A stretch of 64,000 nt of DNA from Gammaproteobacteria bacterium (GTDB taxonomy: Bacteria > Pseudomonadota > Gammaproteobacteria > Eutrophobiales > Eutrophobiaceae): NCBI GenBank assembly GCA_012103475.1, contig WLWS01000006.1, positions 136,518-200,517 on the forward strand, written 5' to 3'. The notes under the pieces were generated by a model, which saw nothing but the letters and a program-made list of their open reading frames with translations, was not told where the DNA came from and ran no database searches. Positions 28,640 through 41,747 of this stretch are shown piece by piece (the stretch's first letter is position 1; each line of letters opens with the position of its first letter). The translations under genes and the position numbers were made by a program.

Positions 28640-28651
28640 ATATGCGCATAT
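28640..28651. promoter_or_regulatory. perfect 12-bp palindrome ATATGCGCATAT, candidate ArsR-family operator
   Basis: Read directly from the sequence. Lies 21-32 nt upstream of the arsR-family ATG (28672) and just upstream of the GAGGA ribosome-binding site. Confidence 0.5.
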
Positions 28652-28671
28652 TAGAAACTGAGGATAAGTGA

Positions 28672-29028
28672 ATGCCCGCTCGCGAAGTGGTCGCCCGGGA
28701 ACTCGCGGAAACTTTCCGAGTTTTGGGTCACGAATTAAGAATACGTATCGTCGAGGAACTGGCACATGGCCACAAAGGCGAACTCGATGTGCATACTCTG
28801 GTGGATATTCTGGATGTGCCTCAGCCTACTGTTTCCCAGCATCTGGGCGTACTTCGGAATGCGAAACTGGTTAAACAACGTCGAGTGGGCCGGCATGTAC
28901 ATTACTCGCTGACGAATCGACAGCTGGCCGGATGGCTTCTCAAGGCTTTGCTTTTTCTGGATGTGCGCTCTCATGATGCTGAAGAGCTGAGTCGAGCCGT
29001 CGAAGATGTTCGACGGGTATGGGGTTAA
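28672..29028 (+). CDS. ArsR/SmtB-family winged-helix transcriptional regulator (cysteine-free)
   Basis: FRVLGHELRIRIVEEL ... VPQPTVSQHLGVLRNAKLV...GRHVHYSL are canonical ArsR HTH motifs. There are no Cys residues, and ELDVHTL sits where ELCVCDL would be. Confidence 0.85.
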   Translation: MPAREVVARELAETFRVLGHELRIRIVEELAHGHKGELDVHTLVDILDVPQPTVSQHLGVLRNAKLVKQRRVGRHVHYSLTNRQLAGWLLKALLFLDVRSHDAEELSRAVEDVRRVWG

Positions 29029-29053
29029 TTACATATTTAATGGGAAGAGAGAT

Positions 29054-30685
29054 ATGACTACGACAACTACCGATATACCTCAGGGAACTATAGATGGACT
29101 CAAACGTCACTGGAAAGACGATATGTTATCGGGCTTTCTGGTATTTCTTATTGCCTTGCCTTTATGTCTTGCCATCTCGCTTGCCTGTGGCTACCCGGCA
29201 ATAGCCGGTGTATTCACGGCGATTATTGGCGGTATTTTGTCCGCTTTTATAAGCAATTCCGAATTGACGATCAAAGGCCCTGCTGCCGGACTTATTGTGG
29301 TCGCTTTGGGCTGTGTCACCGAATTCGGTTTCACAGGAGGACAGGATCTCGCTGCAGATATCCAGGCCTATCGATTGGCTCTGGGAGTCGGAGTAGTCGC
29401 CGGTATTATTCAAATTCTTTTTGGCGTTTTCCGCTCCGGCATACTCGGCGAATTTTTTCCTACATCAGCCGTTCACGGCTTGCTGGCTTCTATCGGTATT
29501 CTGGTCATATCCACGCAAGTACCAATTGTGCTTGGCGTCGCCGCCGGTGGGACACCGCTCGAGCGACTGGCCGCCATTCCAAGCTATTTCATTGAAATGA
29601 ATCCAGTTATAGCCCTGATAGGCGGAATAAGTCTCATCATCATGTTCGGGTTTCCGCTCATTAAGAATCCGCGGCTCAAAATCATACCGGCGCCCATGCT
29701 TGTCCTTTTAGTAGCTGTTCCTCTCGGCATGTATTTCGATATAGGCACTGAACAAATAGTGATGTTCGCAGGACAAGAGGCTTCACTCGGGCCACGCTAC
29801 CTTGTCGATGTGCCTAATAACATGTTCACTGCACTGACCTTTCCGGACTTTTCAGGAGTAATGACAAAAACCGGCATAACCTACATCATCATGTTCTCAT
29901 TAATCGGCAGTGTTGAATCCCTGTTAAGTGCAAAAGCCGTTGATCAGATTGACCCATGGCGTCGTAAAACTAATATGGACAAGGATCTTCTCGCCGTTGG
30001 CATTGGTAACACAGCTGCAGCCTTTGTTGGTGGTCTACCGATGATTTCCGAGATCGTACGAAGTAAAGCCAATATAGATAATGGTGCGCGTACCCGCTTC
30101 GCTAACATGTTTCATGGCTTCTTCCTGCTAGCCTTTGTCGCTCTGGTACCTGCATTAATCGATCGTATTCCCCTCGCAGCGCTTGCAGCGATGCTGGTAT
30201 TTACAGGTTTTCGACTCGCGTCCCCACAAGAGTTCGTCCATATGTACAAAATTGGTCGAGAGCAATTTATCATTTTTGTCTCGACCATCATTGGTGTGCT
30301 TGCAACTGATCTGCTTGTTGGCATCTGTATTGGAATACTGGTGAAAGCAATCATCCACGTCATCAATGGCGCGCCAATCGTTTCCTTGTTCAAGCCCAGT
30401 ATCACAGTTGAAAACGAGAGCGATGAGACGGCGACAATTAAGGTAGATAAATCCGCCCTGTTCAGCACCTGGATCGCGCTGAAAAACCGAATCGGCGGAC
30501 AAAGCGCGAAGCAAGTCATTGTCGACTTGTCTGACACCAAATTCGTGGACCACACTGTGATGGCGAATCTGGAAGCACTCGCCAAAGAATTCAGTGAGAG
30601 TGATCGCGAACTCTTAATCACAGGAATAGAGGAACATAAATCCTTATCTGAACATCCCCTGGCAGCACGAAAGAAATCGTACTGA
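29054..30685 (+). CDS. SulP-family anion transporter with C-terminal STAS domain (candidate bicarbonate transporter)
   Basis: DMLSGFLVFLIALPLCLAISLACGYPAIAGVFTAIIGG and TIKGPAAGLIVV are typical of SulP. The C-terminal section (QVIVDLSDTKFVDHTVMANLEAL) looks like STAS. Start set to ATG 29054. Confidence 0.85.
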   Translation: MTTTTTDIPQGTIDGLKRHWKDDMLSGFLVFLIALPLCLAISLACGYPAIAGVFTAIIGGILSAFISNSELTIKGPAAGLIVVALGCVTEFGFTGGQDLAADIQAYRLALGVGVVAGIIQILFGVFRSGILGEFFPTSAVHGLLASIGILVISTQVPIVLGVAAGGTPLERLAAIPSYFIEMNPVIALIGGISLIIMFGFPLIKNPRLKIIPAPMLVLLVAVPLGMYFDIGTEQIVMFAGQEASLGPRYLVDVPNNMFTALTFPDFSGVMTKTGITYIIMFSLIGSVESLLSAKAVDQIDPWRRKTNMDKDLLAVGIGNTAAAFVGGLPMISEIVRSKANIDNGARTRFANMFHGFFLLAFVALVPALIDRIPLAALAAMLVFTGFRLASPQEFVHMYKIGREQFIIFVSTIIGVLATDLLVGICIGILVKAIIHVINGAPIVSLFKPSITVENESDETATIKVDKSALFSTWIALKNRIGGQSAKQVIVDLSDTKFVDHTVMANLEALAKEFSESDRELLITGIEEHKSLSEHPLAARKKSY

Positions 30686-33552
30686 TGAGCGCAAGCACTC
30701 CATTCTACCGTCTCATCGAGGAGGCGGCCGAACCAGTTTCTCAGTTCTGGCCAATGAAAGGATTTGTCTCGCACAATCCAATACAGGGCCTCGAACATCT
30801 TCCTTTTGACGAAGCATTCCGGCAGGCAAAAGATCTGTTTGGCGCGGAAGGATATTTACCAGCAGAGGAATATCGGGCTTTGTTGCAGACTGGTCGTATA
30901 ACACAGGAAAGCGTGAATAGCGCGATGGCTCGTGTTGGTCCAGAGAATGATGAGTCTGTATCTTTATCATCGCGAACAATTTCAGCAAAGGAAGTACTGA
31001 GGCTTCATTTGCTGCATGGGATTGATGTGCTTGAGCCGGCACTACTTGAATGGCAGCTAACAAGTGGAGGTGCTTTAGAGAAGCCCTTTGCAGCTGCTAC
31101 TACAGAGTTGGACTTAGCCGGATTGTGGCAACAAGTGTTATCTATATTGAAGCTTGCCGACGGCTCTACGAACAAAAAGGGACCGATATCTGCGCAGGCA
31201 GATGAGGCCAGGCTCGATTTACCATTTCGCCGAACCCTCAGTGACTGGCTTGACGAGCTTACCAACTCCTCACTAGTCGCAAGCATCGATCAGCATCTGA
31301 TCAAATGGACATCCTCCTTTGTCGATGAAGGCATGGCCAGCTGGTCTATGCCAGGCAGGCCTTCCGGTTTTTATCTTGCGTGGCGTGAACTCGCCCAGCA
31401 CGATGCGAGTGCCCGACTCCTGGGAATAAAGAACTTTTCATCAAAGGTGGCCGCTTTGCCAGAGGATCCGGAAGCTGGCATCCAGCAATCGCTACAGGCA
31501 CTTCAGATTCCTGAAGCACGTTGGCCGGACTATTTAACCAGAGTGCTCGCCCAGTTGCCAGGCTGGACAGGATTGATTCGCTGGCGTGGGTTGAACCCGG
31601 ATGATCCGATTCAGAAAGCAGCGCCGATCGATGTTGTGCAATATCTTGCCGTTCGCATGTTTTATGAACGGGAGCTTGTTCAATTACAGGCCTCTCGGGA
31701 ATGGCGTATCGAAGGTAATTTACCAACGCTTACAAAATATCTGCAAGAACATGGCAGGGCGCCGGAAGCCACAGTTAGTGCCAACAAAGCGGCGGTATGC
31801 AGCGATGCCTGGCGATTGTTTAATCTCATGCAGCTTTTGAAATCTGAAGCAAGCTCTTTTACTGATATTAGATATGAGCAGGCAAAAGTTATGCTTGGCT
31901 GGCTTGATGAATTTCCTGTTGAGCAACATTTACCCGTTTGGCTTGAGGCATATGAAGATTCCTATCGGAATGAATTGTTGTCAAAAATTCACGCACACAG
32001 GGGAAACGTAACCGAAGCTAAGGAGCGACCACTCGCCCAGGCGGCATTTTGTATTGATGTTCGCTCAGAGCCCTTCCGCCGTCATTTTGAAGCAACAGGG
32101 GCAATAGAAACAATTGGTTATGCGGGCTTTTTCGGTATCCCGATGAGTCACCGCGGGTACGACACAGAAGAGTCCTTTCCACTTTGCCCGGTATTGCTGT
32201 CACCCTCAAATGCACTCTATGAATTACCTCGGGAAGGTCAGCAACAGGCACTCTCAAAATACGCCTCGGGTACACGCTGGCTACAACTAGGGGAGCAACT
32301 ATTTCACGATATAAAGCACAGTCCGATTGCGTCGTTTTTATTGGTAGATGTGCTTGGACTGTTTTTTAGCGTTGCGCTAATTGGCAAAACGCTCTTTCGG
32401 CGTTCTTACCATATCCTGCTTAGTGCAATGAAAAAATGGTTTGTTCAATCTGTCGAGACTGAGATTCAGGCCGGTGAAGAGACAGGTGATAAACCACGAG
32501 TTAGCGGCGTACCGGTTGAGCTTACTCGAGGTTATAGTGTTGCGCAGCAGGCTGATTTCGTCGAAGGTGGACTGCGAGTTACCGGGCTGACGGAAAATCT
32601 TGGCCGATTTGTCGTGCTCTGTGGTCACGGCAGTACAACTGACAATAACCCGTATTCTGCCGCCCTCGACTGCGGTGCATGTGGTGGGCGTCACGGCGAT
32701 CCGAATGCACGTACTTTTGCTATAATGGCGAATAATCCTTTGGTTCGAGCGGAGATCAAGAGGCGTGGTCTTGATATCCCGGAAGACACCTGGTTCTTAC
32801 CAGCAAAGCACAATACCACTGCCGATACGATCGAATTTTACGATGTCGTAGATGTTCCCCAAAGTCATCGAGAAGATCTGGAGAAGCTTCGCCAGTTATT
32901 TATTGAAGGTGGTGAGCAGCAGGCTCTTGACCGTTGCAAACGCATTCCGGGAACTCCGAGTAACATGACCGCGAAACAGGCTTTCGCACATGTTGAGTCA
33001 AGGAGCTTTGACTGGGCGACATCCCGACCTGAATGGGGCCTTTCGGGTAACGCCGCCTTTATCATTGGAAGACGGATGATGACCAAGGGTCTTGATTTAG
33101 GAGGACGTTGTTTCTTACATTCTTACAACGCACTTTCTGATCCGGAAGGCGCCTTGCTGGAAAAAATAATGACGGCACCGCTTGTAGTGGGCGAGTGGAT
33201 CAATATGCAGTACTACACCTCTGCAACTGATCCCTGGAAATACGGCAGTGGCAGCAAAGTTATTCATAATGTTGTGGGAGGAGTGGGGGTTATGTATGGC
33301 GCGCAAAGCGATCTGGCTACAGGCTTACCGCTGCAGACTGTGAATGATGGCGCCAGCCATTTTCACGAGCCCGTACGTTTACTGACTTTGATTGAAGCTG
33401 ATCACGCGATTGTTGGCGAAATCATCGCCAGACATGACATACTGCAACAGTTTTTTCATAACGGCTGGTTGAATCTTGTCGTTATCGATCCGAATACATT
33501 TGAGTTCCGTCGGTACAACACAGACGCAAGCTGGGAGTTGCTTGAGCTATGA
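30685..33552 (+). CDS. dabA: DabA (DUF2309) - carbonic-anhydrase-like subunit of DIC-accumulating (DAB/Mps) complexes
   Basis: 955 aa. N-terminus FWPMKGFVSHNPIQGLEHLPFDEA. CIDVRSE motif (C456, D458). GHGS (H648) and LDCGACGG (C663), with the same H-to-C spacing of 15 as the published DabA Zn site. The ATG overlaps the sulP stop. Confidence 0.85.
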   Translation: MSASTPFYRLIEEAAEPVSQFWPMKGFVSHNPIQGLEHLPFDEAFRQAKDLFGAEGYLPAEEYRALLQTGRITQESVNSAMARVGPENDESVSLSSRTISAKEVLRLHLLHGIDVLEPALLEWQLTSGGALEKPFAAATTELDLAGLWQQVLSILKLADGSTNKKGPISAQADEARLDLPFRRTLSDWLDELTNSSLVASIDQHLIKWTSSFVDEGMASWSMPGRPSGFYLAWRELAQHDASARLLGIKNFSSKVAALPEDPEAGIQQSLQALQIPEARWPDYLTRVLAQLPGWTGLIRWRGLNPDDPIQKAAPIDVVQYLAVRMFYERELVQLQASREWRIEGNLPTLTKYLQEHGRAPEATVSANKAAVCSDAWRLFNLMQLLKSEASSFTDIRYEQAKVMLGWLDEFPVEQHLPVWLEAYEDSYRNELLSKIHAHRGNVTEAKERPLAQAAFCIDVRSEPFRRHFEATGAIETIGYAGFFGIPMSHRGYDTEESFPLCPVLLSPSNALYELPREGQQQALSKYASGTRWLQLGEQLFHDIKHSPIASFLLVDVLGLFFSVALIGKTLFRRSYHILLSAMKKWFVQSVETEIQAGEETGDKPRVSGVPVELTRGYSVAQQADFVEGGLRVTGLTENLGRFVVLCGHGSTTDNNPYSAALDCGACGGRHGDPNARTFAIMANNPLVRAEIKRRGLDIPEDTWFLPAKHNTTADTIEFYDVVDVPQSHREDLEKLRQLFIEGGEQQALDRCKRIPGTPSNMTAKQAFAHVESRSFDWATSRPEWGLSGNAAFIIGRRMMTKGLDLGGRCFLHSYNALSDPEGALLEKIMTAPLVVGEWINMQYYTSATDPWKYGSGSKVIHNVVGGVGVMYGAQSDLATGLPLQTVNDGASHFHEPVRLLTLIEADHAIVGEIIARHDILQQFFHNGWLNLVVIDPNTFEFRRYNTDASWELLEL

Positions 33553-34019
33553 AAGTTTTTATTGCAATCGCGCTCTTTGCATTGTGGCTGGTGTTGTCTG
33601 CATCCTTTAACCCGGCCCATGTAGTGCTGGGAGCAATTGTTGCTTTAATCGTTGCCTGGATAAACCCGATAGGCACTCCCTATACGCGACGCTTTTTATG
33701 GCTGCGAGCGCTGGGCTATGCGCCCTGGCTATTCGGGCGAGTTGTTAAAAGCGGCTTACACGTCAGTCGACTTATTCTTTATCCTGCTCTGCCAATCAAG
33801 CCCGAGCTTATACAACACAAAACAAAGCTTCGCAGCGAAGGAGAGCTTGTTGTACTAGGCAATTCAATCACCCTTACGCCTGGTACGATCACCGTCGAAG
33901 TAGCGCCTGGCGAACTTATCGTACATGCCATTGATGCATCAGCGCAGCAGGACCTTATCAGTGGAGTGCTTGATGAGAAGGTCAGTCGTTTGTTCTCAGC
34001 ATGGGAGGGAGATCAGTGA
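33549..34019 (+). CDS. mrpE: Mrp/Mnh antiporter subunit E-like (MbhA-like)
   Basis: NSITLTPGTITVEV signature. Two N-terminal TM helices. ATGA overlap with the dabA stop. Confidence 0.8.
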   Translation: MKVFIAIALFALWLVLSASFNPAHVVLGAIVALIVAWINPIGTPYTRRFLWLRALGYAPWLFGRVVKSGLHVSRLILYPALPIKPELIQHKTKLRSEGELVVLGNSITLTPGTITVEVAPGELIVHAIDASAQQDLISGVLDEKVSRLFSAWEGDQ

Positions 34020-34288
34020 GTTCATTTTTTGTTTTTGTGCTCGTTACCCTGACGATGCTGATGCTTGTTTATTTATATCGTGTTATTCGCGGACCCAGTG
34101 TCTTTGACCGTGTGCTTGGATTAAACGGTATATCCACCAAGGCAATTGTTTTACTTGTGTTGCTTGGCACGATGTTTGAACGCGTCGATATGTTCGTGGA
34201 TATTTCAACCGGATACGCACTATTGAATCTCGTTGGTGCACTGGCCATCGCGAAATTCCTTGAAGAAAGGGGGACCTCAGAGAAATGA
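34016..34288 (+). CDS. mrpF: Mrp/Mnh subunit F-like (MbhB-like)
   Basis: YRVIRGPSVFDRVLGLN signature. GTG 34016 gives a GTGA overlap with the mrpE stop; an alternative ATG lies at 34001. Confidence 0.75.
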   Translation: MSSFFVFVLVTLTMLMLVYLYRVIRGPSVFDRVLGLNGISTKAIVLLVLLGTMFERVDMFVDISTGYALLNLVGALAIAKFLEERGTSEK

Positions 34289-34584
34289 CCGCCTTAGCAG
34301 TTTTTCTAATAGTCGTAGGACTATTTTTTCTTGTTGTTGGCTCGATTGGTATGATGCGCTTGCCGGATGTCTTTTCCCGTGCACACGCACTTTCGCTTAC
34401 TGATTCACTCGGGGCCGTTTTCGTTCTGGCAGGGCTTGCGGTCTATGAAGGTTTTACCCTTAATTTTCTTCGGATCATTGTTGTGCTACTGCTCGTCTAC
34501 CTGATGAATCCTGCAATTTCACACGCGACATTAAGGGCAGCATACCGTTCAGGTCTTCGGCCTTCTGCAAAGGAAGAAAAATGA
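34285..34584 (+). CDS. mrpG: Mrp/Mnh subunit G-like (MbhC-like)
   Basis: VGSIGMMRLPDVFSRAHALSLTDSLG signature; ATGA overlap with the upstream gene. Confidence 0.8.
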   Translation: MTALAVFLIVVGLFFLVVGSIGMMRLPDVFSRAHALSLTDSLGAVFVLAGLAVYEGFTLNFLRIIVVLLLVYLMNPAISHATLRAAYRSGLRPSAKEEK

Positions 34585-35105
34585 CAATTGAAATTCCACT
34601 TCTTATTTTACTGGTGATGACAGCTGCTGGTGCCATGCTGGTGAAGGATCTTATTTCTTCAGTGTTCATTCTTGGTTCCTATAGCTTCGCACTGTCACTT
34701 GTCTGGGCACTCCTGGGCGCAGTTGATGTGGCTTTTGTAGAGGCCGTTGTCGGGGCAGGACTGGCAACGGTCTTCTTCCTGTTAACCTTATTCCGGACCA
34801 CAGAAAAAGATGACGTTATACGTCGTCCGCCGGTACCCTGGGCGGCAATAATTGGCCTGCCCCTGTTAGGTTTACTGCTTCTTTATGGAGCGGGTGATCT
34901 ACCCGCATTTGGCGATGTAAGTTCTCCGGCAAGCACGCATATTTCTCCCTACTACCTCGAGAACAGTGTTGCGCAAACCCGAACTCCGAACGTGGTGACC
35001 GCTGTGCTCATGGATTATCGTTCTTTCGATACCTTTATCGAGACCATCGTGATATTTACCGCAGGGATTGCCTGCGCACTCATTCTCAGGAAGGGCGGCG
35101 AATGA
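34581..35105 (+). CDS. MbhD/MbhE-like protein (DUF4040 + MnhB N-terminal-type segment; equivalent to the MrpA C-terminal domain)
   Basis: AVDVAFVEAVVGAGLATVFFLL (DUF4040-like) and NVVTAVLMDYRSFDTFIETIVIF (MnhB-type) motifs. Confidence 0.7.
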   Translation: MTIEIPLLILLVMTAAGAMLVKDLISSVFILGSYSFALSLVWALLGAVDVAFVEAVVGAGLATVFFLLTLFRTTEKDDVIRRPPVPWAAIIGLPLLGLLLLYGAGDLPAFGDVSSPASTHISPYYLENSVAQTRTPNVVTAVLMDYRSFDTFIETIVIFTAGIACALILRKGGE

Positions 35106-35563
35106 TTCAGCCACATGACAGCGCTATCGTGCGTTCACTTGGTCATGTTGTCATTCCGATAGCTCAACTCTTCGGGGCTTATGTACTGGTGTTTGGTCAA
35201 CACGGACCGGGGGGCGGCTTTGTCGGTGGTGTGGTCATTGCGGCCAGCATGATCATGGCCATTTTAATCTTCGGCGTTGACTCTGCTGATAGTACGCTCG
35301 CCCGAAAAATACTGCATGGAGACGGGCTGGGTCTGCTGCTCTTTGGCGGTGTTGGCGGACTCTGCCTGATCGGAGGAGGTCAATTTCTGAATTACAGCTT
35401 CTTGCAAATCCCTGGTCTCGACGAAGCGTCTCAACATTATGCCGGAATACTATTGACCCAGATTGGGGTCGCCATGGATGTCGCAGTTACCGGCGTGTCA
35501 ATTGCCGTCAGTCTGTCATTTGAAGAAGATGAAATTTCTCAAGACGAGGTGAAAGATGCTTGA
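35102..35563 (+). CDS. mrpB: Mrp/Mnh subunit B-like (MbhF-like)
   Basis: GQHGPGGGFVGGVVIAAS signature of the MnhB domain. Confidence 0.75.
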   Translation: MIQPHDSAIVRSLGHVVIPIAQLFGAYVLVFGQHGPGGGFVGGVVIAASMIMAILIFGVDSADSTLARKILHGDGLGLLLFGGVGGLCLIGGGQFLNYSFLQIPGLDEASQHYAGILLTQIGVAMDVAVTGVSIAVSLSFEEDEISQDEVKDA

Positions 35564-35933
35564 GCTATTGCAAACACTGATACAACGACCGAACTTTGTT
35601 GTTTTCGTCATCTTGTTTCTTTGGGGCATCTATATCATGGCGGCCCATCCAAACTTCGTTAAAAAACTCATCGGTCTGTATATTGTGCAGATCAGCGCGA
35701 TTTTTTTTCTTGTCGCCTTCAGTGCCAAACAAGGTGCGACGGTACCGGTCATAATGGAAGGGGCGGCAGCGGTGGAACCACTTATCTATGCAAATCCGCT
35801 TCCACATGTGCTGACTGTAACGGCTATTGTGGTCCAGGTTGCAACTCTTGGCGTCTCGCTGGCACTCGTGGCGGGGATTTATCGGAAGTTTGGCACTCTC
35901 GATGAAGATAAAGTGATGGAACAGCTAAAATGA
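35556..35933 (+). CDS. mrpC: Mrp/Mnh subunit C-like (NuoK-like, MbhG-like)
   Basis: 125 aa with three TM helices and a NuoK/MnhC-like pattern; position between mrpB and mrpD. Confidence 0.7.
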   Translation: MLELLQTLIQRPNFVVFVILFLWGIYIMAAHPNFVKKLIGLYIVQISAIFFLVAFSAKQGATVPVIMEGAAAVEPLIYANPLPHVLTVTAIVVQVATLGVSLALVAGIYRKFGTLDEDKVMEQLK

Positions 35934-37396
35934 ACTCTCATCTGCCCATCCTGATTTTTCTCGTGCCCTTTTTTGTGGGTGTATCGATGCCTATTCTCAC
36001 GGCAAAGCGACCTTCGCTATGCCCGGATATCACTTTGGCTGCGGTTATTGTTATGTTTTTGCTGGCAATAGCCAATCTTTATATGGTTCAGACAGAAGGG
36101 CCAATCGAGTATGCACTCGGTGGCTGGACTGCACCGATTGGTATCGCGTGGCTTAATGATTCGATTGCAGCAATTGTGGTTTTGACAGTCACTGTGGTGG
36201 CATTACTGACGCTGATCTATGGCCGGGTTATTGTTAGCGCCGATCTGGCAAAAAGTGTTCCTTACTATACGCTTATCCTTATCATGATTTCAGGCCTGGT
36301 TGGCCTCGTGTTTGCCGCAGACCTGTTTAATGTCTTTGTGTTTCTGGAAGTTGCCGCCTTATCTGGTTATGCACTGGTTGGTGCCGGGGGTGGGAAAGCG
36401 CAGGTTTATGCTTTTCGCTATCTACTGCTGGGTTCTTTTGGCGCAACACTTTATCTGCTGGGCCTTGGGCATCTCTACGTAGTCACCGGTACGCTCAATA
36501 TGGCGGATCTGGCGCTACGACTTCCTGAGTTAATGACATCTACAGCAGTAGTCGGCGGTCTTATCTATATTTTTCTTGGTCTTTCGATCAAGATGGCATT
36601 AATACCACTGCACAGCTGGTTGCCAGATGCGTATACCAACGCGCCCTCCGCAGTGACACCATTACTGGCCTCCACCGTCACCAAGGTCGCATTGGTAGCA
36701 TGGGTTCGCATTGAGTATTCGCTTATTGCGCCAAATGTTGAAGTCAGTCATGTGCCTGTGCTGGTGCTGTTAGAGGAACTAGGCGTTATCGCAGCACTCA
36801 TAGGCGGTGCGCTCGCTCTAATCCAGACCGATCTCAAGCGTATGTTTGCTTATGGCGGGATCAGTCATATTGGTTTGATTCTGATCGGTGTGAGTCTCGG
36901 CAATGACACGGGATTCGTAGGCGGCATGTTTTACCTGATCAATGACGCTGTCATGCAAGCAGCACTTTTCATGATTGCCGGTGCTATTCTTTATTACCAC
37001 AAGGCCCGTACACTTGATGATATACGCGGTGTGGGTCTGCACACTTCACCCTGGCTTACAGGGGCCCTGATAGTGGTCGCAGTAGCAATGGTAGGGTTGC
37101 CACCTACTGGCGGTTTTTTCGGCAAATGGAATATCATACTTGGTGCCCTGGAGGCAGAACACTACTTTGCCGTATTTGCGGTGATCGCATCAACACTGCT
37201 GACCTTCGGTTATTTCCTTAAAGTATTCGCCGCCTGGTTCCACCAGACTGAATTTGTCGAAGCAAAATCAATCAAGATCTCAAGTGGCTTGAGAGTCAGT
37301 TTGGGTGCTATATCAATCTTAATGATTGCGCTTGGGCTTATGAGTGATTCAGTTGTGCAAATTTTACTTGAATCAGTAAACAATGGAGGCATTTGA
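35930..37396 (+). CDS. mrpD: antiporter-like subunit, MrpD/NuoN/MbhH-type (Proton_antipo_M)
   Basis: YALGGWTAPIGIAWLNDS, HSWLPDAY and MFAYGGISHIG are typical of MrpD-class subunits. Confidence 0.8.
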   Translation: MNSHLPILIFLVPFFVGVSMPILTAKRPSLCPDITLAAVIVMFLLAIANLYMVQTEGPIEYALGGWTAPIGIAWLNDSIAAIVVLTVTVVALLTLIYGRVIVSADLAKSVPYYTLILIMISGLVGLVFAADLFNVFVFLEVAALSGYALVGAGGGKAQVYAFRYLLLGSFGATLYLLGLGHLYVVTGTLNMADLALRLPELMTSTAVVGGLIYIFLGLSIKMALIPLHSWLPDAYTNAPSAVTPLLASTVTKVALVAWVRIEYSLIAPNVEVSHVPVLVLLEELGVIAALIGGALALIQTDLKRMFAYGGISHIGLILIGVSLGNDTGFVGGMFYLINDAVMQAALFMIAGAILYYHKARTLDDIRGVGLHTSPWLTGALIVVAVAMVGLPPTGGFFGKWNIILGALEAEHYFAVFAVIASTLLTFGYFLKVFAAWFHQTEFVEAKSIKISSGLRVSLGAISILMIALGLMSDSVVQILLESVNNGGI

Positions 37397-37403
37397 GAAG
37401 ACC

Positions 37404-39491
37404 ATGTCGATTTACACACTGATTCCTTTTCTACCGCTGGCAGCCTCGCTGATCCTGACACTATTTGGCGAGCAGCTGCAGGGCAAAGGGCAGCGACTTG
37501 TGATTCCGGCAATTGCACTTTCATTTCTGCTTTCCATTATTGCCTTCCTCGAAGTTATTGCAAACGGCCCGATTAATGTACAACTCTATCAATTTCTGAA
37601 TGTAGGCAAGCTGGTTGTTGATATGGGCTTTTTTCTCGATCAGCTCACCGTACTTTTGCTGCTGCTGGTAACCGGGGTCAGCACTGTCGTGCAGGTCTAT
37701 GCCTCCCGTTACATGGTAGGCGATCCACGGCACAGCCGTTTTTTTGCGCTGACTGCAATGTTTACAGCTGCAATGACACTACTGGTAATGAGCAGCAACT
37801 TAATGATGACCTTCATTTTTTGGGAACTCATGGGACTGTGCTCGTATCTGCTGATATCACATTACGCCGAGCGCCCCAGTGCCGCACGTGCCGCAACAAA
37901 GGTATTTCTGGTTAATTCCGTCGCCGATGCCGGACTCTTAGTCGGTGTCGTTCTGACTTTTCTGACTTTTGGCACGCTCGATATTCAGGAGATTCTGGTA
38001 ATAGCAAAATCAGGTGCTGATGTTTCCGATCTGCCCATAACACTGTTAACGCTATGTCTATTTTGCGGTGCAGTCGGCAAATCTGCGCAAATGCCTGCGC
38101 ACGTCTGGTTACCTTTTGCGATGGAAGCGCCGACACCAGTATCCGCGCTGATTCATGCCGCAACAATGGTGAATGCCGGGCCTTTTTTACTCGTGCGCCT
38201 GAGCCCGGTTATTGTGCTTTCGCCTACTGCGATGACGGTTATCACTATCGTTGGCGCCATGACGGCACTGTTTGCCGCAGTCGTGTCCTTAACGCAAACC
38301 GATATTAAGCGAACACTTGCCTATTCCACCATAAGTCAGCTCGGCTTTATGGTTATGTTATGTGGTGTGGGCGCATTTGTGGCCGCTATTTTTCACCTTA
38401 TCGCACATGGCTTCTTCAAGGCCTTCCTGTTTCTGTCCACCGGCAACGCGCTTACTGCCACCCATCGTCATTTAGAGCATGAAGAGGAAACGCCGGCACT
38501 TGCCAGGAACGGACTCTTTGTTGGCGCCCTAATCATGTCGATTGTACCGGTGCTGGTGTTTTTCTCAGGTTCCTATCGTCACCTGTGGCTTTCACAGAGT
38601 TCTTCCACCGCGGAAATAGCCTTATGGATTGTTGGCCTTGCTACGATCTTTTTTACTGCGATGTATCTCTTCAAAAGTGTGACGACAATCTTCCGCCGTG
38701 GTCCCACGGGAGCTAAAGACAGTGAGCCCCTTGTTTCTCCAGACCTGTTCTCTGCACGTCACGTAATTGGCGTTGCTGTCATAGCAGCAATCATGATTGC
38801 ACTGTTAATTACAGTATGGCGCTGGTTTGCGGGTTTCCTCTCGCCAGCAGTAGGTGGTGCGCAGAGTCAGCTTGCATCGGAATTTTCTGTCTGGATACTG
38901 TTGCCCTTGCTTGTCGCCGTGGCGGGCTGGATAGTCGCTTATGTCCGATTCAGACGTCCGCGCTTGCAGCAGACCTCGGTTTTAAAGAAACGACTTTATG
39001 TCTTCTTCCTGAATAAAGGGTATTTCGATGACATTTATGAGGTATTTCTGGTCCGCCCGACTTTAAAACTTGCTGACTGGACCTGGAGAAAGATTGATCA
39101 GGGTATTATCGATAAGGTCATAATTTCACTCGGTACTATAAGTACAGCGCTTGCCCATCGTCTCGGTTACCTCGATGCAGCTATTGATAAGGGAGTCATG
39201 TCGGTTGGTACTGGCAGTACTGCAATTGCCCATCGCCTCGGCTATCTCGATGCTATTGTTGATAATCGTGTTACTTCGGTTGGCTCGGTCAGCATCGGTT
39301 TAGCCCGTTGGCTGGGCAGATTCGTCGATACAGAGGGCATTTCTAAAACGGTTGATGGATTAGGACGGAGCGTGGATGCGTCCGGACACGCGGCTAGACG
39401 CTATGAACCACACACACTACAACACAACCTGTTGGTGGTAGTATTGTGGCTGGTTGCAGCTCTGGGTTTTTTCTACTGGATCGGGGGATAA
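37404..39491 (+). CDS. antiporter-like subunit, NuoL/NdhF/MrpA-N-type (DabB candidate) with expanded C-terminal lateral-helix region
   Basis: FIFWELMGLCSYLLI, VGKSAQMPAHVWLPFAMEAPTPVSALIHAATMV and LAYSTISQLGFM are NuoL/NdhF hallmarks. The C-terminus has four tandem 25-26-aa units and a final TM anchor. An alternative ATG at 37383 overlaps the upstream gene. Confidence 0.8.
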   Translation: MSIYTLIPFLPLAASLILTLFGEQLQGKGQRLVIPAIALSFLLSIIAFLEVIANGPINVQLYQFLNVGKLVVDMGFFLDQLTVLLLLLVTGVSTVVQVYASRYMVGDPRHSRFFALTAMFTAAMTLLVMSSNLMMTFIFWELMGLCSYLLISHYAERPSAARAATKVFLVNSVADAGLLVGVVLTFLTFGTLDIQEILVIAKSGADVSDLPITLLTLCLFCGAVGKSAQMPAHVWLPFAMEAPTPVSALIHAATMVNAGPFLLVRLSPVIVLSPTAMTVITIVGAMTALFAAVVSLTQTDIKRTLAYSTISQLGFMVMLCGVGAFVAAIFHLIAHGFFKAFLFLSTGNALTATHRHLEHEEETPALARNGLFVGALIMSIVPVLVFFSGSYRHLWLSQSSSTAEIALWIVGLATIFFTAMYLFKSVTTIFRRGPTGAKDSEPLVSPDLFSARHVIGVAVIAAIMIALLITVWRWFAGFLSPAVGGAQSQLASEFSVWILLPLLVAVAGWIVAYVRFRRPRLQQTSVLKKRLYVFFLNKGYFDDIYEVFLVRPTLKLADWTWRKIDQGIIDKVIISLGTISTALAHRLGYLDAAIDKGVMSVGTGSTAIAHRLGYLDAIVDNRVTSVGSVSIGLARWLGRFVDTEGISKTVDGLGRSVDASGHAARRYEPHTLQHNLLVVVLWLVAALGFFYWIGG
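39096..39404 (+). repeat. four tandem 75-78-nt (25-26-aa) repeat units inside the NuoL-like gene
   Basis: Units start at D572, D598, D623 and D649: DQGIIDKVIISLGTISTALAHRLGYL / DAAIDKGVMSVGTGSTAIAHRLGYL / DAIVDNRVTSVGSVSIGLARWLGRFV / DTEGISKTVDGLGRSVDASGHAARRY. Units 1 and 2 are also very similar at the DNA level (gcccatcgtctcggttacctcgatgc vs gcccatcgcctcggctatctcgatgc). Confidence 0.85.
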
Positions 39492-39499
39492 ACAACGTT

Positions 39500-40972
39500 A
39501 TGGATTCACTATTTACAGACCACCTGCTGAGCTTGATGATCGCCATGCCATTTATCGGCATGGTTATTCTCGCATTTTTAAGTGACCGAAAATGGGTACT
39601 CACGACGACACTTGTTATCACACTGATCAACACGGCGCTCGCTTTCTTTCTCTGGAGTCAATTTGACCTCACCGAAACCGGCATGCAATTCGTTGAACGC
39701 CATCAATGGATGCCGACCTTCGGCATAGAATATGCCGTCGGTGTAGACGGCATCAGTCTGCTACTGGTACTGCTGACCACCTTCCTGCCGCCTCTTTGTG
39801 TGCTTGGATGCTGGGATTCAATCACCACCCGCTTGAAAGCCTTCATGATGTTGATCCTGCTCGTCGAAGGCGCCATGCTGGTTGTGTTTACTGCCCTGGA
39901 TGCTTTTCTATTCTTCATGCTCTGGGAAGTCACCATGGTGCCCATGTATTTCATGATTGTGCTGTGGGGCGGGCCGAATCGCGTCGCAGCCGGTTTGAAG
40001 TATGTCCTGTACAGCCTTACGGGAAGTTTACTTCTGCTCGTCGGTATATTGGGGCTTTCACTGCAGGCGGGTACTTTCGACATCATACAACTGGCAGATT
40101 TCAGTTATTCGGAGAAATCGGAATTCTGGATATTCCTCGCCCTGTTTCTGGGCTTTGCGATCAAACTTCCGATGCTGCCTTTTCACACCTGGCTTCCGGA
40201 TGCTCACTCCGAAGCGCCGACCGCGGGTAGTGTGCTGTTGGCAGGGGTACTCCTGAAAATGGGTGGCTATGGACTCATTCGTTTCTGTCTGCCCATCTTT
40301 CCAGAAATGGCGCATAGTTTTGCGCCGGCTGTGCTGTGGTTATCAGTTGCCGGTATTTTGTACGGCGGTTATATGGCGCTGGCACAAGAAGATCTGAAGA
40401 GACTGGTTGCCTATTCTTCCGTCTCGCATATGGGTTTTGTCACTCTGGGAATTTTCTCCTTCAATAACGAAGGTATCGAAGGCGCCATTTTGCAAATGAT
40501 GACCCATGGCCTGACTACCGGTGCAATGTTCCTGATAGTTGGTCAGCTATATGACCGCACACACAGTCGCAACATAGCTGACTATGGTGGTCTTCAGCAA
40601 CGCATGCCCAGATTCGTGGCCATTCTCAGCCTGTTTGCGGTCGCGTCATTCGGTTTACCTACAACATCTAATTTTATCGGCGAGTTCCTTATTCTTGTGG
40701 GTGTCTCCTACGAAAACTTTATCTTCGTCGTGCTGGCGATGGGCGGCATTGTCCTGGGTGCGGCCTACATGCTGTGGATGTTGCAGCGTGTTGCCTTCGG
40801 TCAGGCACGCACCGAAGCTGCTAGACAATTAACAGATCTGAATTTTCGGGAAATGCTGACAATACTTCCACTGGCTGTTGCTGTGGTAGGTATTGGCGTC
40901 TATCCAGGGCCATTTCTTGAGTCTATGGATGCCAGTGTGACTTACGTGGTTGAACGAATGGCTCAGCATTGA
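39500..40972 (+). CDS. antiporter-like subunit, NuoM/NdhD-type
   Basis: FGIEYAVGVDGISLLLVLLTTFL and FHTWLPDAHSEAPTAGSVLLAGVLLKMGGYGLIRF are NuoM hallmarks. Start set to ATG 39500, 8 nt after the upstream stop. Confidence 0.85.
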   Translation: MDSLFTDHLLSLMIAMPFIGMVILAFLSDRKWVLTTTLVITLINTALAFFLWSQFDLTETGMQFVERHQWMPTFGIEYAVGVDGISLLLVLLTTFLPPLCVLGCWDSITTRLKAFMMLILLVEGAMLVVFTALDAFLFFMLWEVTMVPMYFMIVLWGGPNRVAAGLKYVLYSLTGSLLLLVGILGLSLQAGTFDIIQLADFSYSEKSEFWIFLALFLGFAIKLPMLPFHTWLPDAHSEAPTAGSVLLAGVLLKMGGYGLIRFCLPIFPEMAHSFAPAVLWLSVAGILYGGYMALAQEDLKRLVAYSSVSHMGFVTLGIFSFNNEGIEGAILQMMTHGLTTGAMFLIVGQLYDRTHSRNIADYGGLQQRMPRFVAILSLFAVASFGLPTTSNFIGEFLILVGVSYENFIFVVLAMGGIVLGAAYMLWMLQRVAFGQARTEAARQLTDLNFREMLTILPLAVAVVGIGVYPGPFLESMDASVTYVVERMAQH

Positions 40973-41015
40973 TGCCATTCATGTCAGGGACTCCTCTTTA
41001 TTGAGCGGTATTAAG

Positions 41016-41720
41016 ATGTCAAACAACATATATCGCATCCTCATTTCATATTTTCTTTGCTGGGTGTTAAGCGCGAACGCTGCAGCTCAGATTGACGAGG
41101 ATCAGACGGGCGCATGGTACATGTATTTATGGAATACGGCATTTGAAGACAGTCAGTTTGGATTGCAAGGGGATATCCAGCACAGAAACTGGGACCTTGG
41201 AGGAGACCTGGAGCAGTTGCTGATCAGAGGCGGCCTTAGCTGGTCTCCCGAGCAAAGTAATGTGAAATACACTTTGGGTTATGCCAACATCACATCCGGC
41301 ACCTTTGGTTCTTCGTCAAGCACCTCAAATGAGCATCGAGCCTATCAGAAGGCATCGATTCCTCAACGATGGGGTAAAAAACTTTATATTGGTCATCGTC
41401 TCAGGTTGGAACAACGTTGGGTGGAAGATCAGGACTATCGCAATCGATTCCGTTATTTCCTCAGTGCTAATTATCCCTTGAACAAATCTGACTTGAGTCA
41501 GGGAAGTGTTTATCTGTCATTTTACAATGAGCTATTCATCAACCTGGAAAAAGATATTGGCAATGGCAGGAAGGTCGATAATTTCGATAGAAACCGAACT
41601 TATCTGGCTCTTGGCTATAGCTGGACTAATCAAATCAGACTTCAATTCGGCTATATGCATCAAAAAACGAAATCAGTAGATAAGGGTCAATTGCAGTTCA
41701 ATTTATTTCATTCGTTCTAA
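41016..41720 (+). CDS. putative outer-membrane beta-barrel protein (DUF2490-like)
   Basis: Signal peptide MSNNIYRILISYFLCWVLSANAAAQ. Alternating amphipathic strands rich in Y/W/R. C-terminal ...FNLFHSF with terminal Phe. The DUF2490 assignment is from memory of the family pattern. Confidence 0.55.
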   Translation: MSNNIYRILISYFLCWVLSANAAAQIDEDQTGAWYMYLWNTAFEDSQFGLQGDIQHRNWDLGGDLEQLLIRGGLSWSPEQSNVKYTLGYANITSGTFGSSSSTSNEHRAYQKASIPQRWGKKLYIGHRLRLEQRWVEDQDYRNRFRYFLSANYPLNKSDLSQGSVYLSFYNELFINLEKDIGNGRKVDNFDRNRTYLALGYSWTNQIRLQFGYMHQKTKSVDKGQLQFNLFHSF

Positions 41721-41747
41721 TTTGATGACAAACGTCGTTTACGGCGC

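Follow-up and report, generated by a model that had tools for sequence, protein, structure and literature searches.

The operon lies in a 64-kb window, the whole stretch of DNA that was analysed, and all its genes are on the + strand. It begins with a gene for an ArsR/SmtB-family HTH regulator (28672..29028; Pfam HTH_5, 4e-10), which overlaps by 23 nt a gene for a SulP/SLC26 anion transporter with a STAS domain (29006..30685; Pfam Sulfate_transp, 2e-53, plus STAS). There follow dabA, encoding a 955-aa DabA (DUF2309) protein (30685..33552; PF10070, 874 bits), and then mrpE (33549..34019; MNHE, PF01899, 2e-33), mrpF (34001..34288; MrpF_PhaF, PF04066, 8e-14), mrpG (34285..34584; PhaG_MnhG, PF03334, 5e-22; TIGR01300, 78 bits, cutoff 63), a gene for a 174-aa fused MbhD+MbhE/DUF4040 protein (34581..35105; PF13244, 8e-15, and PF20501, 6e-10), one for an MnhB-domain protein, equivalent to group-3 MrpB' or MbhF (35102..35563; PF04039, 7e-21), and mrpC, which is NuoK-like (35556..35933; Oxidored_q2, PF00420, 5e-17). 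Three antiporter-like subunits complete the series: a 488-aa MrpD-type subunit (35930..37396; PF00361), a 702-aa NuoL-type subunit that is the DabB equivalent (37383..39491; PF00361 and PF00662), and a NuoM-type subunit (39446..40972; PF00361; TIGR01972, 598 bits, cutoff 264). The true starts of the last two genes are probably 37404 (695 aa) and 39500 (490 aa). From arsR through the NuoM-type gene every neighbouring pair overlaps or abuts, with the largest true gaps about 8-9 nt given these starts; the 3' end of dabA reaches 4 nt into mrpE, and the mrp genes fit in between dabA and nuoL, overlapping by 4-23 nt. The gene order and the three antiporter-like subunits at 33549-40972 are as originally predicted, with the ORFs at exactly the coordinates given there and with Pfam matches far beyond chance.

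DabA matches the DabA2 chain 9rd0_A at 389 bits, and its zinc ligands C456, D458, H648 and C663 are invariant across 76 other aligned DabA sequences. Judged by its sequence, it is a zinc-dependent, beta-carbonic-anhydrase-like vectorial CO2 hydratase, and it proved to be the operon's sole peripheral subunit, as had been proposed. Its hydrophobic elbow spans residues 543-566, with an elbow acid, D555, that is Asp in 21 and Glu in one of 22 Mrp-linked DabAs. In solved DAB structures the DabA elbow wedges into the NuoL-like DabB, and in DAB2 a DabA finger glutamate occupies the place of NuoL K399/D400; the DabA of the window has Asp at the equivalent position. The SulP protein is a candidate bicarbonate carrier; its best PDB matches are SLC26Dg (76 bits) and BicA (69 bits), it scores under the BicA and DauA equivalog cutoffs, and its gene lies immediately 5' of dabA in most cluster-bearing loci.

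The NuoL-type protein had been taken for the NuoL-like part of a split MrpA, and this assignment fails. The protein scores 481 bits against TIGR01974 (cutoff 407), matches NuoL, ND5 and NdhF1 structures at 249-307 bits, compared with 142-150 for MrpA and 148 for DabB2, and in the tree joins NuoL and the DabA-linked NuoL-like proteins, with MrpA outside the group (bootstrap 100, 100/100). Its place among the DabA-linked NuoL proteins has a bootstrap of 80, falling to 79 and 65 as the grouping widens. At TM12 the Lys-Asp pair (K399/D400) is gone, and Ser stands in place of R175. None of the 8 cluster orthologues has the pair, nor do 12 of the 13 subfamily representatives listed, whereas K-D/E is retained in complex-I NuoL (5/5), MrpA (2/2) and 120 of 127 other, complex-I-like NuoL representatives. 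This loss is a feature common to the sampled DabA-linked NuoL-like proteins.

Of the other two antiporter-like subunits, the NuoM-type one matches NuoM/ND4 structures at 356-417 bits, NdhD3 at 256 and MrpD at 114; it retains E144, K234, K265, H348 and E407, and lies inside the NuoM clade (bootstrap 90), together with proteobacterial complex-I NuoM (bootstrap 83). The best PDB matches of the MrpD-type subunit are MrpD (7qru_D, 206 bits), MbhH (187), MbsH (179) and NuoN (115); it retains E133, K217 and K395, has Thr in place of K247 as in MrpD, and its neighbours in the tree are haloarchaeal D1 (bootstrap 67) and the MrpD references (78). The phylogeny, proposed originally as a check, places the MrpD-type subunit with MrpD, the NuoM-type with NuoM and the NuoL-type with DabA-linked NuoL, in neighbour-joining trees that have few references and 65-80% support at some key nodes. 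The terminal pair had also been equated with the F/D pair that cyanobacteria use with CupA. This holds as a likeness in role but not in descent, with 154/256 bits against NdhF3/NdhD3, 294/327 against NdhF1/NdhD1 and up to 417 against NuoM.

The small subunits are of Mrp type. MrpE shares T108/T110/P111/T113 and H126 with haloarchaeal and Priestia MrpE, the P32 and D36-R37 motif of MrpF is kept in 22/22 cluster copies and in reference Mrp sequences, and the top NCBIfam matches of MrpC are all MrpC models. The DUF4040 protein scores 174 bits against NF009159 (cutoff 141) and aligns with MrpA residues 606-760 (7d3u_A) and 652-807 (6z16_A) as well as with MbhD/MbhE and MbsD/MbsE. The prediction that it is MbhD/E-like is borne out, and on these alignments the fused protein is the group-3 'MrpB', homologous to MrpA TM17-21. 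A separate MbhI-like protein was not seen in the operon, and MrpA is likewise absent from the group-3 Mrp module; the lateral helix and TM16 that this module lacks would be supplied by the NuoL-type subunit.

The lateral helix of this subunit is unusual. At 161 aa, the linker between TM15 and TM16 is roughly double the usual length. Four of five complex-I NuoL references have 80-83 aa there and the fifth, from Sinorhizobium, 137 aa; the median of 127 representatives is 85 aa, and MrpA has 42-45 aa. Within the helix, residues 576-650 form three tandem 25-residue repeats (39108..39332), with a self-similarity maximum at offset 25 (mean BLOSUM62 0.71) that was matched in 0/1000 shuffles. NuoL-type orthologues fall into length classes in steps of 25 aa, and the cluster family has two or three such repeats with an equal number of subunits; elsewhere, additional antiporter-like subunits go with 26-aa lateral-helix insertions (PMC9040806). 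AlphaFold2 models the subunit with low confidence (mean pLDDT 61.5; 30-40 in the lateral helix).

No redox module accompanies these genes, in agreement with the original prediction. Homologues of NuoA/B/CD/E/F/G/H/I/J were absent from the 64-kb window (phmmer, E. coli queries, E<=0.01), and Pfam scans found no redox subunit among its remaining ORFs of at least 150 aa. An MbhM/NuoH-like anchor and NuoB/C/D/I were also absent within 10 kb of DabA in 78 genome loci retrieved with DabA as query, and were never the best match in 80 loci retrieved with MrpD.

About 45 loci, spread over several phyla, carry the full cluster. The order SulP-DabA-E-F-G-DE-B-C-D-L-M is shared by about 24 genome loci of Gammaproteobacteria, including the cultured Pseudohaliea rubra DSM 19751, Alphaproteobacteria, Myxococcota, Acidobacteriota and Nitrospiraceae. 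The cluster is also found in 18 metagenome loci, with more distant versions in Nitrospirota and others. ArsR-type homologues lie upstream of it in L002, L004, L005, L008, L018 and L021. The E-F-G-B-B'-C-D order had been read as diagnostic of Mbh/Mbx; it is instead the usual group-3 Mrp order, found also in stand-alone antiporters such as the seven-gene mrpEFGBB'CD of P. furiosus, which has a single antiporter-like subunit (PMC8415708). The prediction had allowed that the order might be common without DabA, and this is partly so: E-F-G-DUF4040-B-C-D1-D2-D3 occurs without DabA or a redox module in 62 metagenomic loci and on two haloarchaeal plasmids. Such stand-alone E-F-G-B-B'-C-D1-D2-D3 clusters are the closest relatives of the operon's Mrp part, in a sister relation. 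They already have an arm with three antiporter-like subunits, and this architecture thus pre-exists.

The reading we favour, at a probability of roughly 55%, is that a DAB of the DabA/NuoL/NuoM type and a group-3 Mrp Na+/H+ antiporter module form one redox-free complex of about 11 subunits, in which Na+/H+ exchange would be linked to the hydration of CO2. Its parts would be DabA, the DabB-like NuoL-type subunit and NuoM, with MrpE, F, G, the MbhD/E-like B, B', C and D, the DAB having taken the place of the distal D2-D3 of a nine-gene Mrp. The sequence data establish gene content, homologies, residue signatures, the cluster's conservation as a unit and its sister relation to stand-alone nine-gene Mrp clusters, whereas physical assembly, where DabA docks, which ion is coupled and which way it flows are our inference. 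DabA would dock from the cytoplasm onto the distal NuoL-type subunit, with its elbow and D555 inserted at the lost TM12 Lys-Asp site as in solved DAB structures, and the arm would run on through NuoM, MrpD and MrpC/DUF4040/MnhB to MrpF/G/E. NuoM and MrpD, with channel residues intact, may relay a charge and conformational wave to the small-subunit Na+ module, and the longer NuoL lateral helix may strap the lengthened arm. The complex would couple the passage of ions through its Mrp module and its antiporter-like channels to one-way conversion of cytoplasmic CO2 to HCO3-. In a marine cell under alkaline conditions, Na+ entry down its gradient is an attractive drive. The operon is apparently a conserved, undescribed variant of the bacterial inorganic-carbon pump, and may be a CO2 pump of a marine bacterium that runs on sodium instead of protons.

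A possible but rather unlikely alternative is that the operon encodes two separate machines, a three-subunit DAB and a seven-subunit group-3 Mrp. The latter would extrude Na+ or import H+, and the two would cooperate only via ion cycling, for example by sustaining the Na+ gradient that a Na+-dependent SulP bicarbonate transporter would use, or through pH balance. DabA-NuoM-NuoL does occur without mrp genes in L020, L040 and L056, and the P. furiosus Mrp works alone with its one antiporter-like subunit; each half thus exists, presumably functional, on its own, which makes the hybrid complex less certain. However, in every locus the mrp genes sit between dabA and its NuoL partner rather than alongside them, dabA lies directly 5' of mrpE in all 11 MrpD-side loci having enough upstream sequence, and the nearest stand-alone Mrp relatives have three antiporter-like subunits, not one. 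The lateral helix also speaks against separate machines: the linker is 136-161 aa in Mrp-linked loci with TM15 detected and 113-169 aa in their representatives, compared with 93 aa in the single complete Mrp-less DabA-M-L comparator. Three observations temper this argument: repeat number varies in the cluster family at constant subunit number, the Sinorhizobium complex-I reference also has a long linker of 137 aa, and the structural model of the helix is weak.

Alternatively, the same hardware could serve alkaline-pH and Na+ homeostasis instead of carbon supply. DabA would make H+ and HCO3- from respiratory CO2, SulP would export the HCO3-, and in seawater the cytoplasm would be acidified by the retained protons together with the H+ that Mrp takes up while expelling Na+. 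Mrp antiporters do serve alkaline and sodium homeostasis (PMC5703873), the SulP carrier is predicted to be in the same transcription unit, and the genes around the operon are purely those of a heterotroph, Rubisco and carboxysome genes being absent among them. We nevertheless consider such a role improbable, given that all characterised DABs are energy-coupled accumulators of inorganic carbon (Ci) and that the neighbours of the Nitrospirota version (P-II, a weakly matching LCIB-like CA, MpsC and SulP) suggest Ci acquisition.

It is very improbable that DabA and the NuoL- and NuoM-type subunits replace NuoL/NuoM in a host complex I, as a redox-driven CO2 hydratase like cyanobacterial NDH-1MS, with the Mrp genes as passengers and NuoB/C/D/H/I encoded elsewhere. 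Both subunits do score far higher against complex-I NuoL/NuoM than against Mrp or DabB chains, the NuoM-type one also grouping there in the tree, and the search for redox partners in the host genome covered the 64-kb window. But the cluster travels as a unit among phyla with differing respiratory chains, the TM12 Lys-Asp pair is lost, a doubled lateral-helix linker would not suit the usual L-M-N geometry, and DAB complexes function without complex I (bioRxiv 10.1101/476713). The original model of an Mbh/Mbx-type arm with DabA replacing the redox arm at the NuoH/MbhM end, which drew on the mbhA-H order, on DabA as the sole large soluble protein and on dabA abutting mrpE, is equally hard to credit, since stand-alone Mrp antiporters have this order, DabA's known partner is NuoL-like, there is no NuoH-like anchor in the window or near DabA in the genome loci retrieved, the DabA elbow is kept, and the TM12 Lys-Asp pair is lost in the NuoL-type subunit. 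The idea of a module swap survives, but the data favour the distal end of the arm over the peripheral-arm place.

In this heterotroph the hybrid complex would probably serve to supply carboxylations with bicarbonate and to keep pH and Na+ in balance, rather than to feed a carboxysome-based CO2-concentrating mechanism; SulP would transport HCO3-, and control of the operon would fall to the ArsR-type protein. The gene neighbours in Nitrospirota separately tie the cluster to inorganic carbon. Downstream of the NuoM-type gene lies a gene for a DUF2490 protein with a signal peptide (40950..41720, + strand; PF10677, 3e-43; probable start 41016), whose N-terminus reads MSNNIYRILISYFLCWVLSANAAAQ. Its membership of the operon is uncertain and its association loose: L003, L015, L018 and L021 have a homologue close to the cluster, though on either strand.

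The genes from an arsR-type gene through a DUF2490 gene form a single tightly packed operon on the + strand, from 28672 to about 41720. In order, it encodes an ArsR-type regulator, a SulP/STAS anion carrier, DabA (955 aa), MrpE, MrpF, MrpG, a 174-aa MbhD+MbhE fusion (DUF4040), an MnhB-domain protein, MrpC, an MrpD-type protein (488 aa; 35930-37396), a NuoL-type protein (702 aa; 37383-39491), a NuoM-type protein (508 aa; 39446-40972) and, as a less certain member, a DUF2490 protein, with strong Pfam and NCBIfam matches to these families. Overlaps between adjacent genes are 1-23 nt, and once the start codons of the NuoL-type and NuoM-type genes are moved to their probable positions, the leftover intergenic gaps are shorter than 10 nt. 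The stretch 33549-40972 runs exactly from mrpE through the NuoM-type gene. Window proteins match NKB39133.1 (DabA), NKB39134.1 (MrpE) and NKB39137.1 (DUF4040). The source record misnames MrpE (33549-34019; NKB39134.1) as 'ABC transporter permease' and the MrpD-type gene as 'hydrogenase 4 subunit B', and the present assignment corrects both names. The SulP protein is not a BicA orthologue (121 bits against a cutoff of 880).

All seven parts of a group-3 Mrp module (MrpC, MrpD, MrpE, MrpF, MrpG, DUF4040/MbhDE and MnhB) were matched by Pfam/NCBIfam. Several residues common to reference Mrp proteins are kept in at least 95% of 22 copies: P32, D36 and R37 of MrpF; R25, P27, R32, H34, P76, H80 and R84 of MrpG; T108, T110, P111, T113 and H126 of MrpE; and D23, D49, E54, D106, D150 and E154 of MbhDE. 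Their functional meaning we take to be that assigned in mutagenesis work. By the definition used, group-3 mrp operons have no mrpA, and the seven-gene block of the window is identical to theirs (PMC8415708). In both the stand-alone mrpEFGBB'CD of P. furiosus and the haloarchaeal/metagenomic nine-gene form, the first seven genes have the same order and domains as in the window, down to the MbhD/E-like fusion known there as 'MrpB'; the absence of mrpA and of a redox module and, in the nine-gene form, the presence of three antiporter-like subunits are likewise shared.

The original prediction had taken this order as a mark of Mbh/Mbx complexes. The same order, E-F-G-DUF4040-MnhB-C-D1-D2-D3 (D1-D3 being the antiporter-like subunits of stand-alone nine-gene Mrp clusters), was found on two haloarchaeal plasmids with nothing else relevant beside it. 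A metagenome scan from the MrpD-type protein gave 80 loci. The 18 nearest (45-61% identity) all carry the DabA-linked cluster, with dabA directly 5' of mrpE in 11 of the 11 that have enough upstream sequence. The next 62 (33-41% identity) are stand-alone Mrp loci of the haloarchaeal type, ordered E-F-G-DUF4040-B-C-D1-D2-D3 where the contig is long enough, with no DabA match and no NuoB/CD/H/I homologue as best match. Because Mbh-style order and three antiporter-like subunits without a redox module are found in stand-alone loci, they represent a common antiporter design, and the gene order of the window is that of an ordinary group-3 Mrp. Against the haloarchaeal type, the window E, F, G, DUF4040, C and D proteins reach higher scores than they do against Bacillus-type Mrp. 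The haloarchaeal D2 and D3 are not orthologues of the window L and M proteins, which score 57-85 bits against D2/D3 but 258 bits against E. coli NuoL and 355 bits against E. coli NuoM. The window stands apart in having a DabB-like NuoL at position 8 and a NuoM at position 9, with DabA and SulP as upstream additions. On the two plasmids (loci L080 and L081), D3 (618 aa) bears the long linker at its C-terminus, with a last TM helix, an acidic low-complexity stretch is inserted in D2, and MrpE, at 345 aa, is about twice its usual size.

Each antiporter-like subunit was compared with all PDB chains. The 488-aa protein is of the MrpD/MbhH type (MrpD 206 bits, MbhH 187, MbsH 179, NuoN 115). The 702-aa protein is of the NuoL type, scoring 249-307 bits against ND5/NuoL/NdhF1, 154 against NdhF3, 142-150 against MrpA and 148 against DabB2. 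The 508-aa protein is of the NuoM type (356-417 bits), followed by NdhD1 (327), NdhD3 (256) and MrpD (114). Homologue searches with the MrpD-type and NuoL-type proteins returned close orthologues only (at least 62% identical) and no outgroups; tree references were taken from E. coli and plasmid records. The neighbour-joining tree (91 PF00361 proteins, 445 columns, 100 bootstraps) used small reference sets: NuoL/M/N from E. coli, Paenibacillus, Neisseria, Sinorhizobium and Tsukamurella, MrpA/D from Priestia and Dinoroseobacter, haloarchaeal D1-D3, and DabA-linked proteins of related loci. In this tree, the NuoL-type protein joined, at a bootstrap of 80, the L subunits from loci with DabA-NuoM-NuoL but no mrp genes, then classical DabB (79) and all DabA-linked L-type proteins (65). 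In the PDB comparison, this candidate DabB-lineage partner of DabA scores higher against complex-I NuoL than against DabB2. The NuoM-type protein fell inside NuoM (90), beside proteobacterial complex-I NuoM (83), and the MrpD-type protein joined haloarchaeal D1 (67) and the MrpD references (78).

MrpA was excluded from the set of DabA-linked L-type proteins and complex-I NuoL in 100 of 100 replicates, so there is no mrpA gene here, and the idea that the far-end protein is the NuoL-like part of a split MrpA is unsupported. On this result and the PDB scores, in which NuoL ranks above MrpA, we reject the NuoL-type protein as the N-terminal half of MrpA. The companion claim about the DUF4040 protein held: its homologues are TM17-21 of MrpA and MbhD plus MbhE. 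The observation behind the original prediction was therefore confirmed and its interpretation partly supported, with neither the split MrpA nor an order specific to Mbh upheld.

We compared channel residues in E. coli numbering. The NuoL-type protein retains E144, D178, K229, H254, H334, H338 and K342, and R175 is replaced by Ser or Ala. Its TM12 pair K399/D400 is lost, the motif GFxSK[DE] having become FSGSYRHL. None of the 8 cluster orthologues examined has the pair, and of 13 listed subfamily representatives (P0241-P0255) all except one have lost it, as have the other DabA-linked L-type proteins sampled, among which the unaligned sequence of one related locus (L041) has FFSK and its alignment may be shifted. 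The K-D/E pair is retained in 5 of 5 complex-I NuoL, 2 of 2 MrpA and 120 of 127 other NuoL-like representatives. E144, K234, K265, H348 and E407 are retained in the NuoM-type protein, and E133, K217 and K395 in the MrpD-type protein. Judged by these residues, all three channels look functional.

DabA matches PF10070 with 874 bits and DabA2 with 389 bits. Its Zn ligands C456, D458, H648 and C663 align with C351, D353, H524 and C539 of DabA2 and are invariant in 76 other aligned DabA sequences. A hydrophobic elbow segment lies at residues 543-566; within it, Asp555 aligns with E444 of DabA2, and all 22 Mrp-linked DabAs have an acidic residue (D or E) there. In the cryo-EM structure of DAB2, Glu444 of the DabA2 finger motif occupies the site of NuoL K399/D400, and altering it abolishes activity (bioRxiv 10.64898/2026.03.13.711513). 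From the loss of the TM12 pair and the presence of Asp555 at the corresponding position of DabA, we infer that the NuoL-type subunit is the docking site of DabA and would be the DabB of this system.

The DAB systems compared with the window were DAB2 (DabA-DabB, Halothiobacillus neapolitanus; PDB 9rd0), DAB1 (DabA-DabB-DabC, Thermocrinis albus) and MpsAB (Staphylococcus aureus). Like the DABs, the window has a DabA with four Zn ligands and a membrane elbow carrying an acidic residue, and a NuoL-like PF00361 partner without the TM12 Lys-Asp pair. Unlike classical DabB, this partner retains the TM5 Glu and has a very long lateral helix and TM16. In the DAB1 paper, structural alignment places DabC on the part of NuoM nearest to NuoL; a full NuoM in the window would take the position of DabC, and, unlike in DAB1, its channel residues are intact where DabC is inert. 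Weak M-like proteins beside some other DabAs lack these channel residues, in agreement with the DAB1 paper's account of DabC. Also unlike the DABs, seven Mrp genes sit between dabA and the partner gene, for ~11 subunits versus 2-3, and the cluster does not fit the definition of a two- or three-subunit complex that is sufficient alone. A related arrangement is found in the COGNAT 'clade C' operons, in which YbcC (=DabA) lies 5' of a gene homologous to NuoL, and SulP and NuoM are encoded nearby (PMC5700660, 2017). As in the window, DabA stands before its NuoL-like and NuoM-like neighbours and SulP is close by; the text of that paper mentions no Mrp E/F/G/B/C/D subunits in the neighbourhood. Four Mrp-less loci (L020, L040, L042 and L056) fit 'clade C' and group with the window NuoL-type protein in the tree.

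The lateral helix of the NuoL-type subunit is unusually long. Its TM15-TM16 linker measures 161 aa, within the 136-161 aa of Mrp-linked orthologues with a detected TM15 (113-169 aa in their representatives). The linker is 80-83 aa in four of five complex-I NuoL references and 137 aa in the fifth, Sinorhizobium (median of 127 representatives, 85 aa), 42-45 aa in MrpA, 13-30 aa in classical DabB, and 93 aa in the one comparator available among Mrp-less loci, a single complete DabA-M-L locus. Residues 576-650 are built from a 25-residue unit repeated three times in tandem: the self-similarity score is highest at an offset of 25, and in 1000 shuffles its value was reached 0 times. Repeat number varies within the cluster family; from the helix start to the C-terminus, 120 orthologues fall into classes of 134 and 159-163 aa, one repeat apart. 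A DNA tandem-repeat search over the lateral-helix region found none, and since the repeats are seen at the protein level only, they are old. An AlphaFold2 model of the subunit (46 orthologues) was of low confidence, with a pLDDT of 61.5, and of 30-40 in the lateral helix, where it is unreliable; the region is predicted to be helical. In Nitrospira 2M complex I and Manganitrophus Complex_I_3, 26-aa helix insertions accompany each extra antiporter-like subunit (PMC9040806). We read the lengthened helix as a probable adaptation to a longer arm.

The cluster is no one-genome oddity, as it recurs in other genome and metagenome loci. Starting from DabA, and with fetched loci annotated at ORF level, about 24 of 78 genome loci have the complete cluster with its order unchanged. 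Carriers include Pseudohongiella (75% DabA identity), Pseudohaliea rubra DSM 19751, Arenicellaceae, Rariloculaceae, Halieaceae and Rhodospirillaceae, as well as Myxococcota, Acidobacteriota, Bryobacterales and Nitrospiraceae. DabA identity is at least 51% within the clade, 40-48% in Mrp-less loci (L020, L022, L040, L042 and L056) and at most 38% elsewhere; every clade member keeps the seven Mrp genes and a full NuoM inside the operon. This set of parts, with its homologies and its intact or altered residues, is conserved as a unit. MrpD-type orthologues fall into at least 120 sequence clusters at 90% identity, and NuoL-type subunits into ~12 at 50% identity. The gene cluster turns up often in marine and sediment metagenomes, and heterotrophs are among its carriers. 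Distant versions (43-49% NuoL identity) retain the order. In one of them, with a 1265-aa DabA, from a Nitrospirota MAG (L088; GCA_003695915.1, 199-18926), the neighbours are an LCIB-like CA (weak match), MpsC, P-II, CBS and GAF proteins, SulP and a Tll0287-like protein, surroundings that look like a larger regulon for inorganic-carbon handling. Our literature searches, of incomplete coverage, returned no description of a DabA-Mrp cluster or of DabA/DUF2309 paired with MrpE. The cluster, which we read as a DAB pump on a group-3 Mrp arm, is widespread, has at least one cultured carrier and is undescribed in the literature searched.

From the gene content and residues, we propose with moderate confidence a single complex, which would be arranged as DabA·NuoL - NuoM - MrpD - (MrpC / DUF4040 / MnhB) - MrpF/G/E. 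Its origin may lie in a three-subunit DAB whose L-M-DabA unit took the place of D2-D3 in a nine-gene Mrp. Our confidence is low that one-way hydration of CO2 by DabA is coupled to ions moving through the Mrp Na+ module and the three channels; here the probable driving force in a marine cell would be the sodium gradient, HCO3- would be carried by SulP, and a heterotroph would use the product for carboxylations and for pH or Na+ balance. We assign a probability of roughly 40% to the full reading: a third, independent route to a complex-I-like converter without redox chemistry, in the form of an 11-subunit sodium-motive CO2 pump whose Na+/H+ antiporter module drives, or is driven by, a vectorial carbonic anhydrase 150-200 Å away, and which would be spread widely among heterotrophs from several phyla in the sea and in sediments. 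The signal would pass three antiporter-like subunits, and the repeat-lengthened lateral helix would hold the arm together.

The main rival is that the genes encode two separate complexes, cooperating only by ion cycling. Stand-alone Mrp clusters and Mrp-less DabA-NuoM-NuoL loci both exist and are compatible with such a division; the lengthened helix, read as fitting a longer arm, lends indirect support to one physical complex, given the single Mrp-less comparator, the varying repeat number and the unreliable model of this region.

The peripheral-arm swap put forward in the original prediction, with a carbonic-anhydrase-like module in place of the redox module, is unlikely. The MBH/MBS (Mbx) complexes of Thermococcales do contain an Mrp-derived module in the same order, with MbhD/E corresponding to the DUF4040 protein. 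However, the window has no homologues of MbhM/NuoH or MbhJ/K/L/N, and it adds two complex-I-type subunits at the other end, whereas MbhH is the sole antiporter-like subunit in MBH and one of two in MBS. The hallmark of these complexes, a NuoH-like anchor (MbhM) with a NuoB/C/D/I-like [NiFe]/Fe-S module, was not found in the window, where the only complex-I homologues are the L-type, M-type and K-like (MrpC) proteins. phmmer searches with E. coli NuoA, B, CD, E, F, G, H, I and J gave no match in the window (E<=0.01) and none within 10 kb of DabA in 78 related genome loci (E<=1e-3). By Pfam, the other window ORFs of at least 150 aa encode β-oxidation enzymes, ring-hydroxylating dioxygenases, PQQ dehydrogenase, short-chain dehydrogenases and TonB receptors, with hydrogenase, complex I, Rubisco and carboxysome genes absent. 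The earlier statement that the window has no redox module agrees with these Nuo and Pfam searches. Also unlikely is use of a host complex I in the manner of NDH-1MS/NDH-1MS' (NdhF3-NdhD3-CupA-CupS), which likewise has a CO2-hydrating protein on the distal NuoL/NuoM-like pair of a complex-I-type arm and shares energy passage along antiporter-like subunits, but whose CupA is unrelated to DabA, whose redox driver on NdhH/K/I/J/A is absent in the window, and whose NdhF3/D3 (154 and 256 bits) are further from the window L and M than are NuoL/NuoM and NdhF1/D1; the proposed equivalence of the terminal pair to the cyanobacterial NdhF/NdhD pairing with CupA is thus an analogy, not membership.

How DABs are energized, and by which coupling ion, is still debated despite two cryo-EM structures. 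If the proposed 11-subunit pump is real, a natural DAB joined to a complete Na+/H+ antiporter module would offer a direct test of Na+ versus H+ coupling. Long-range coupling along antiporter-like subunits is a central open question for complex I and Mrp, and the pump would provide a clean, redox-free model with CO2 hydration at one end and Na+/H+ exchange at the other. Given its frequency in marine and sediment metagenomes and its presence in heterotrophs, the cluster may then matter for dark bicarbonate assimilation and for pH or Na+ balance in the ocean.

Some related loci depart from the common pattern. In a Pseudomonadales MAG (L024, 9893-12858), dabA is in five ORF fragments and sulP in two, with the downstream mrp, NuoL-type and NuoM-type genes intact, reflecting either DabA decay or assembly error. 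One metagenomic copy (L091:10517-14625) has, after the NuoM-type gene, an 887-aa PF00662/PF00361 protein and a 486-aa protein, which may be a second antiporter-like module. Four loci, from Roseovarius autotrophicus (L043), Rubrobacter (L030) and two others (L035 and L068), have other DAB architectures with several antiporter-like subunits and none of the mrp small subunits; in one such architecture, SulP-NuoM-DabA-NuoL precedes two or three additional NuoM-like genes. The lateral-helix linker in Roseovarius is 130 aa, and the Rubrobacter NuoL-like ORF is 1162 aa.

Upstream of the operon, a perfect 12-bp palindrome, ATATGCGCATAT, lies at 28640-28651 in an AT-rich 166-nt gap 5' of arsR, directly preceding the arsR ribosome-binding site (GAGGATAAGTGA, then ATG). 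It could be an operator of the ArsR-type regulator. Promoter and terminator scans over 28000-42500 gave site numbers not above those of shuffled sequence. ArsR/SmtB-family regulators like the window gene (28672-29028) also stand directly 5' of the DabA clusters in six loci of the Mrp-linked clade (L002, L004, L005, L008, L018 and L021), and weak matches to the family lie 5' of DabA in five acidobacterial loci with a different DabA architecture (L058, L059, L062, L063 and L066). We know of no Ci-responsive ArsR-type regulator. Elsewhere in the window, an AMP-binding (acyl-CoA synthetase-like) gene at 9242-10835 (- strand) is broken into three ORFs, and a TonB-dependent receptor at 23241-25794 (+ strand) is split into separate Plug and barrel ORFs; these are either pseudogenes or MAG frameshift errors. 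The DUF2490 protein after the NuoM-type gene (40950-41720, probable start 41016) has a clear signal peptide (…SANAAAQ), and its homologues lie near the cluster in four related loci (L003, L015, L018 and L021), on either strand and on either side.
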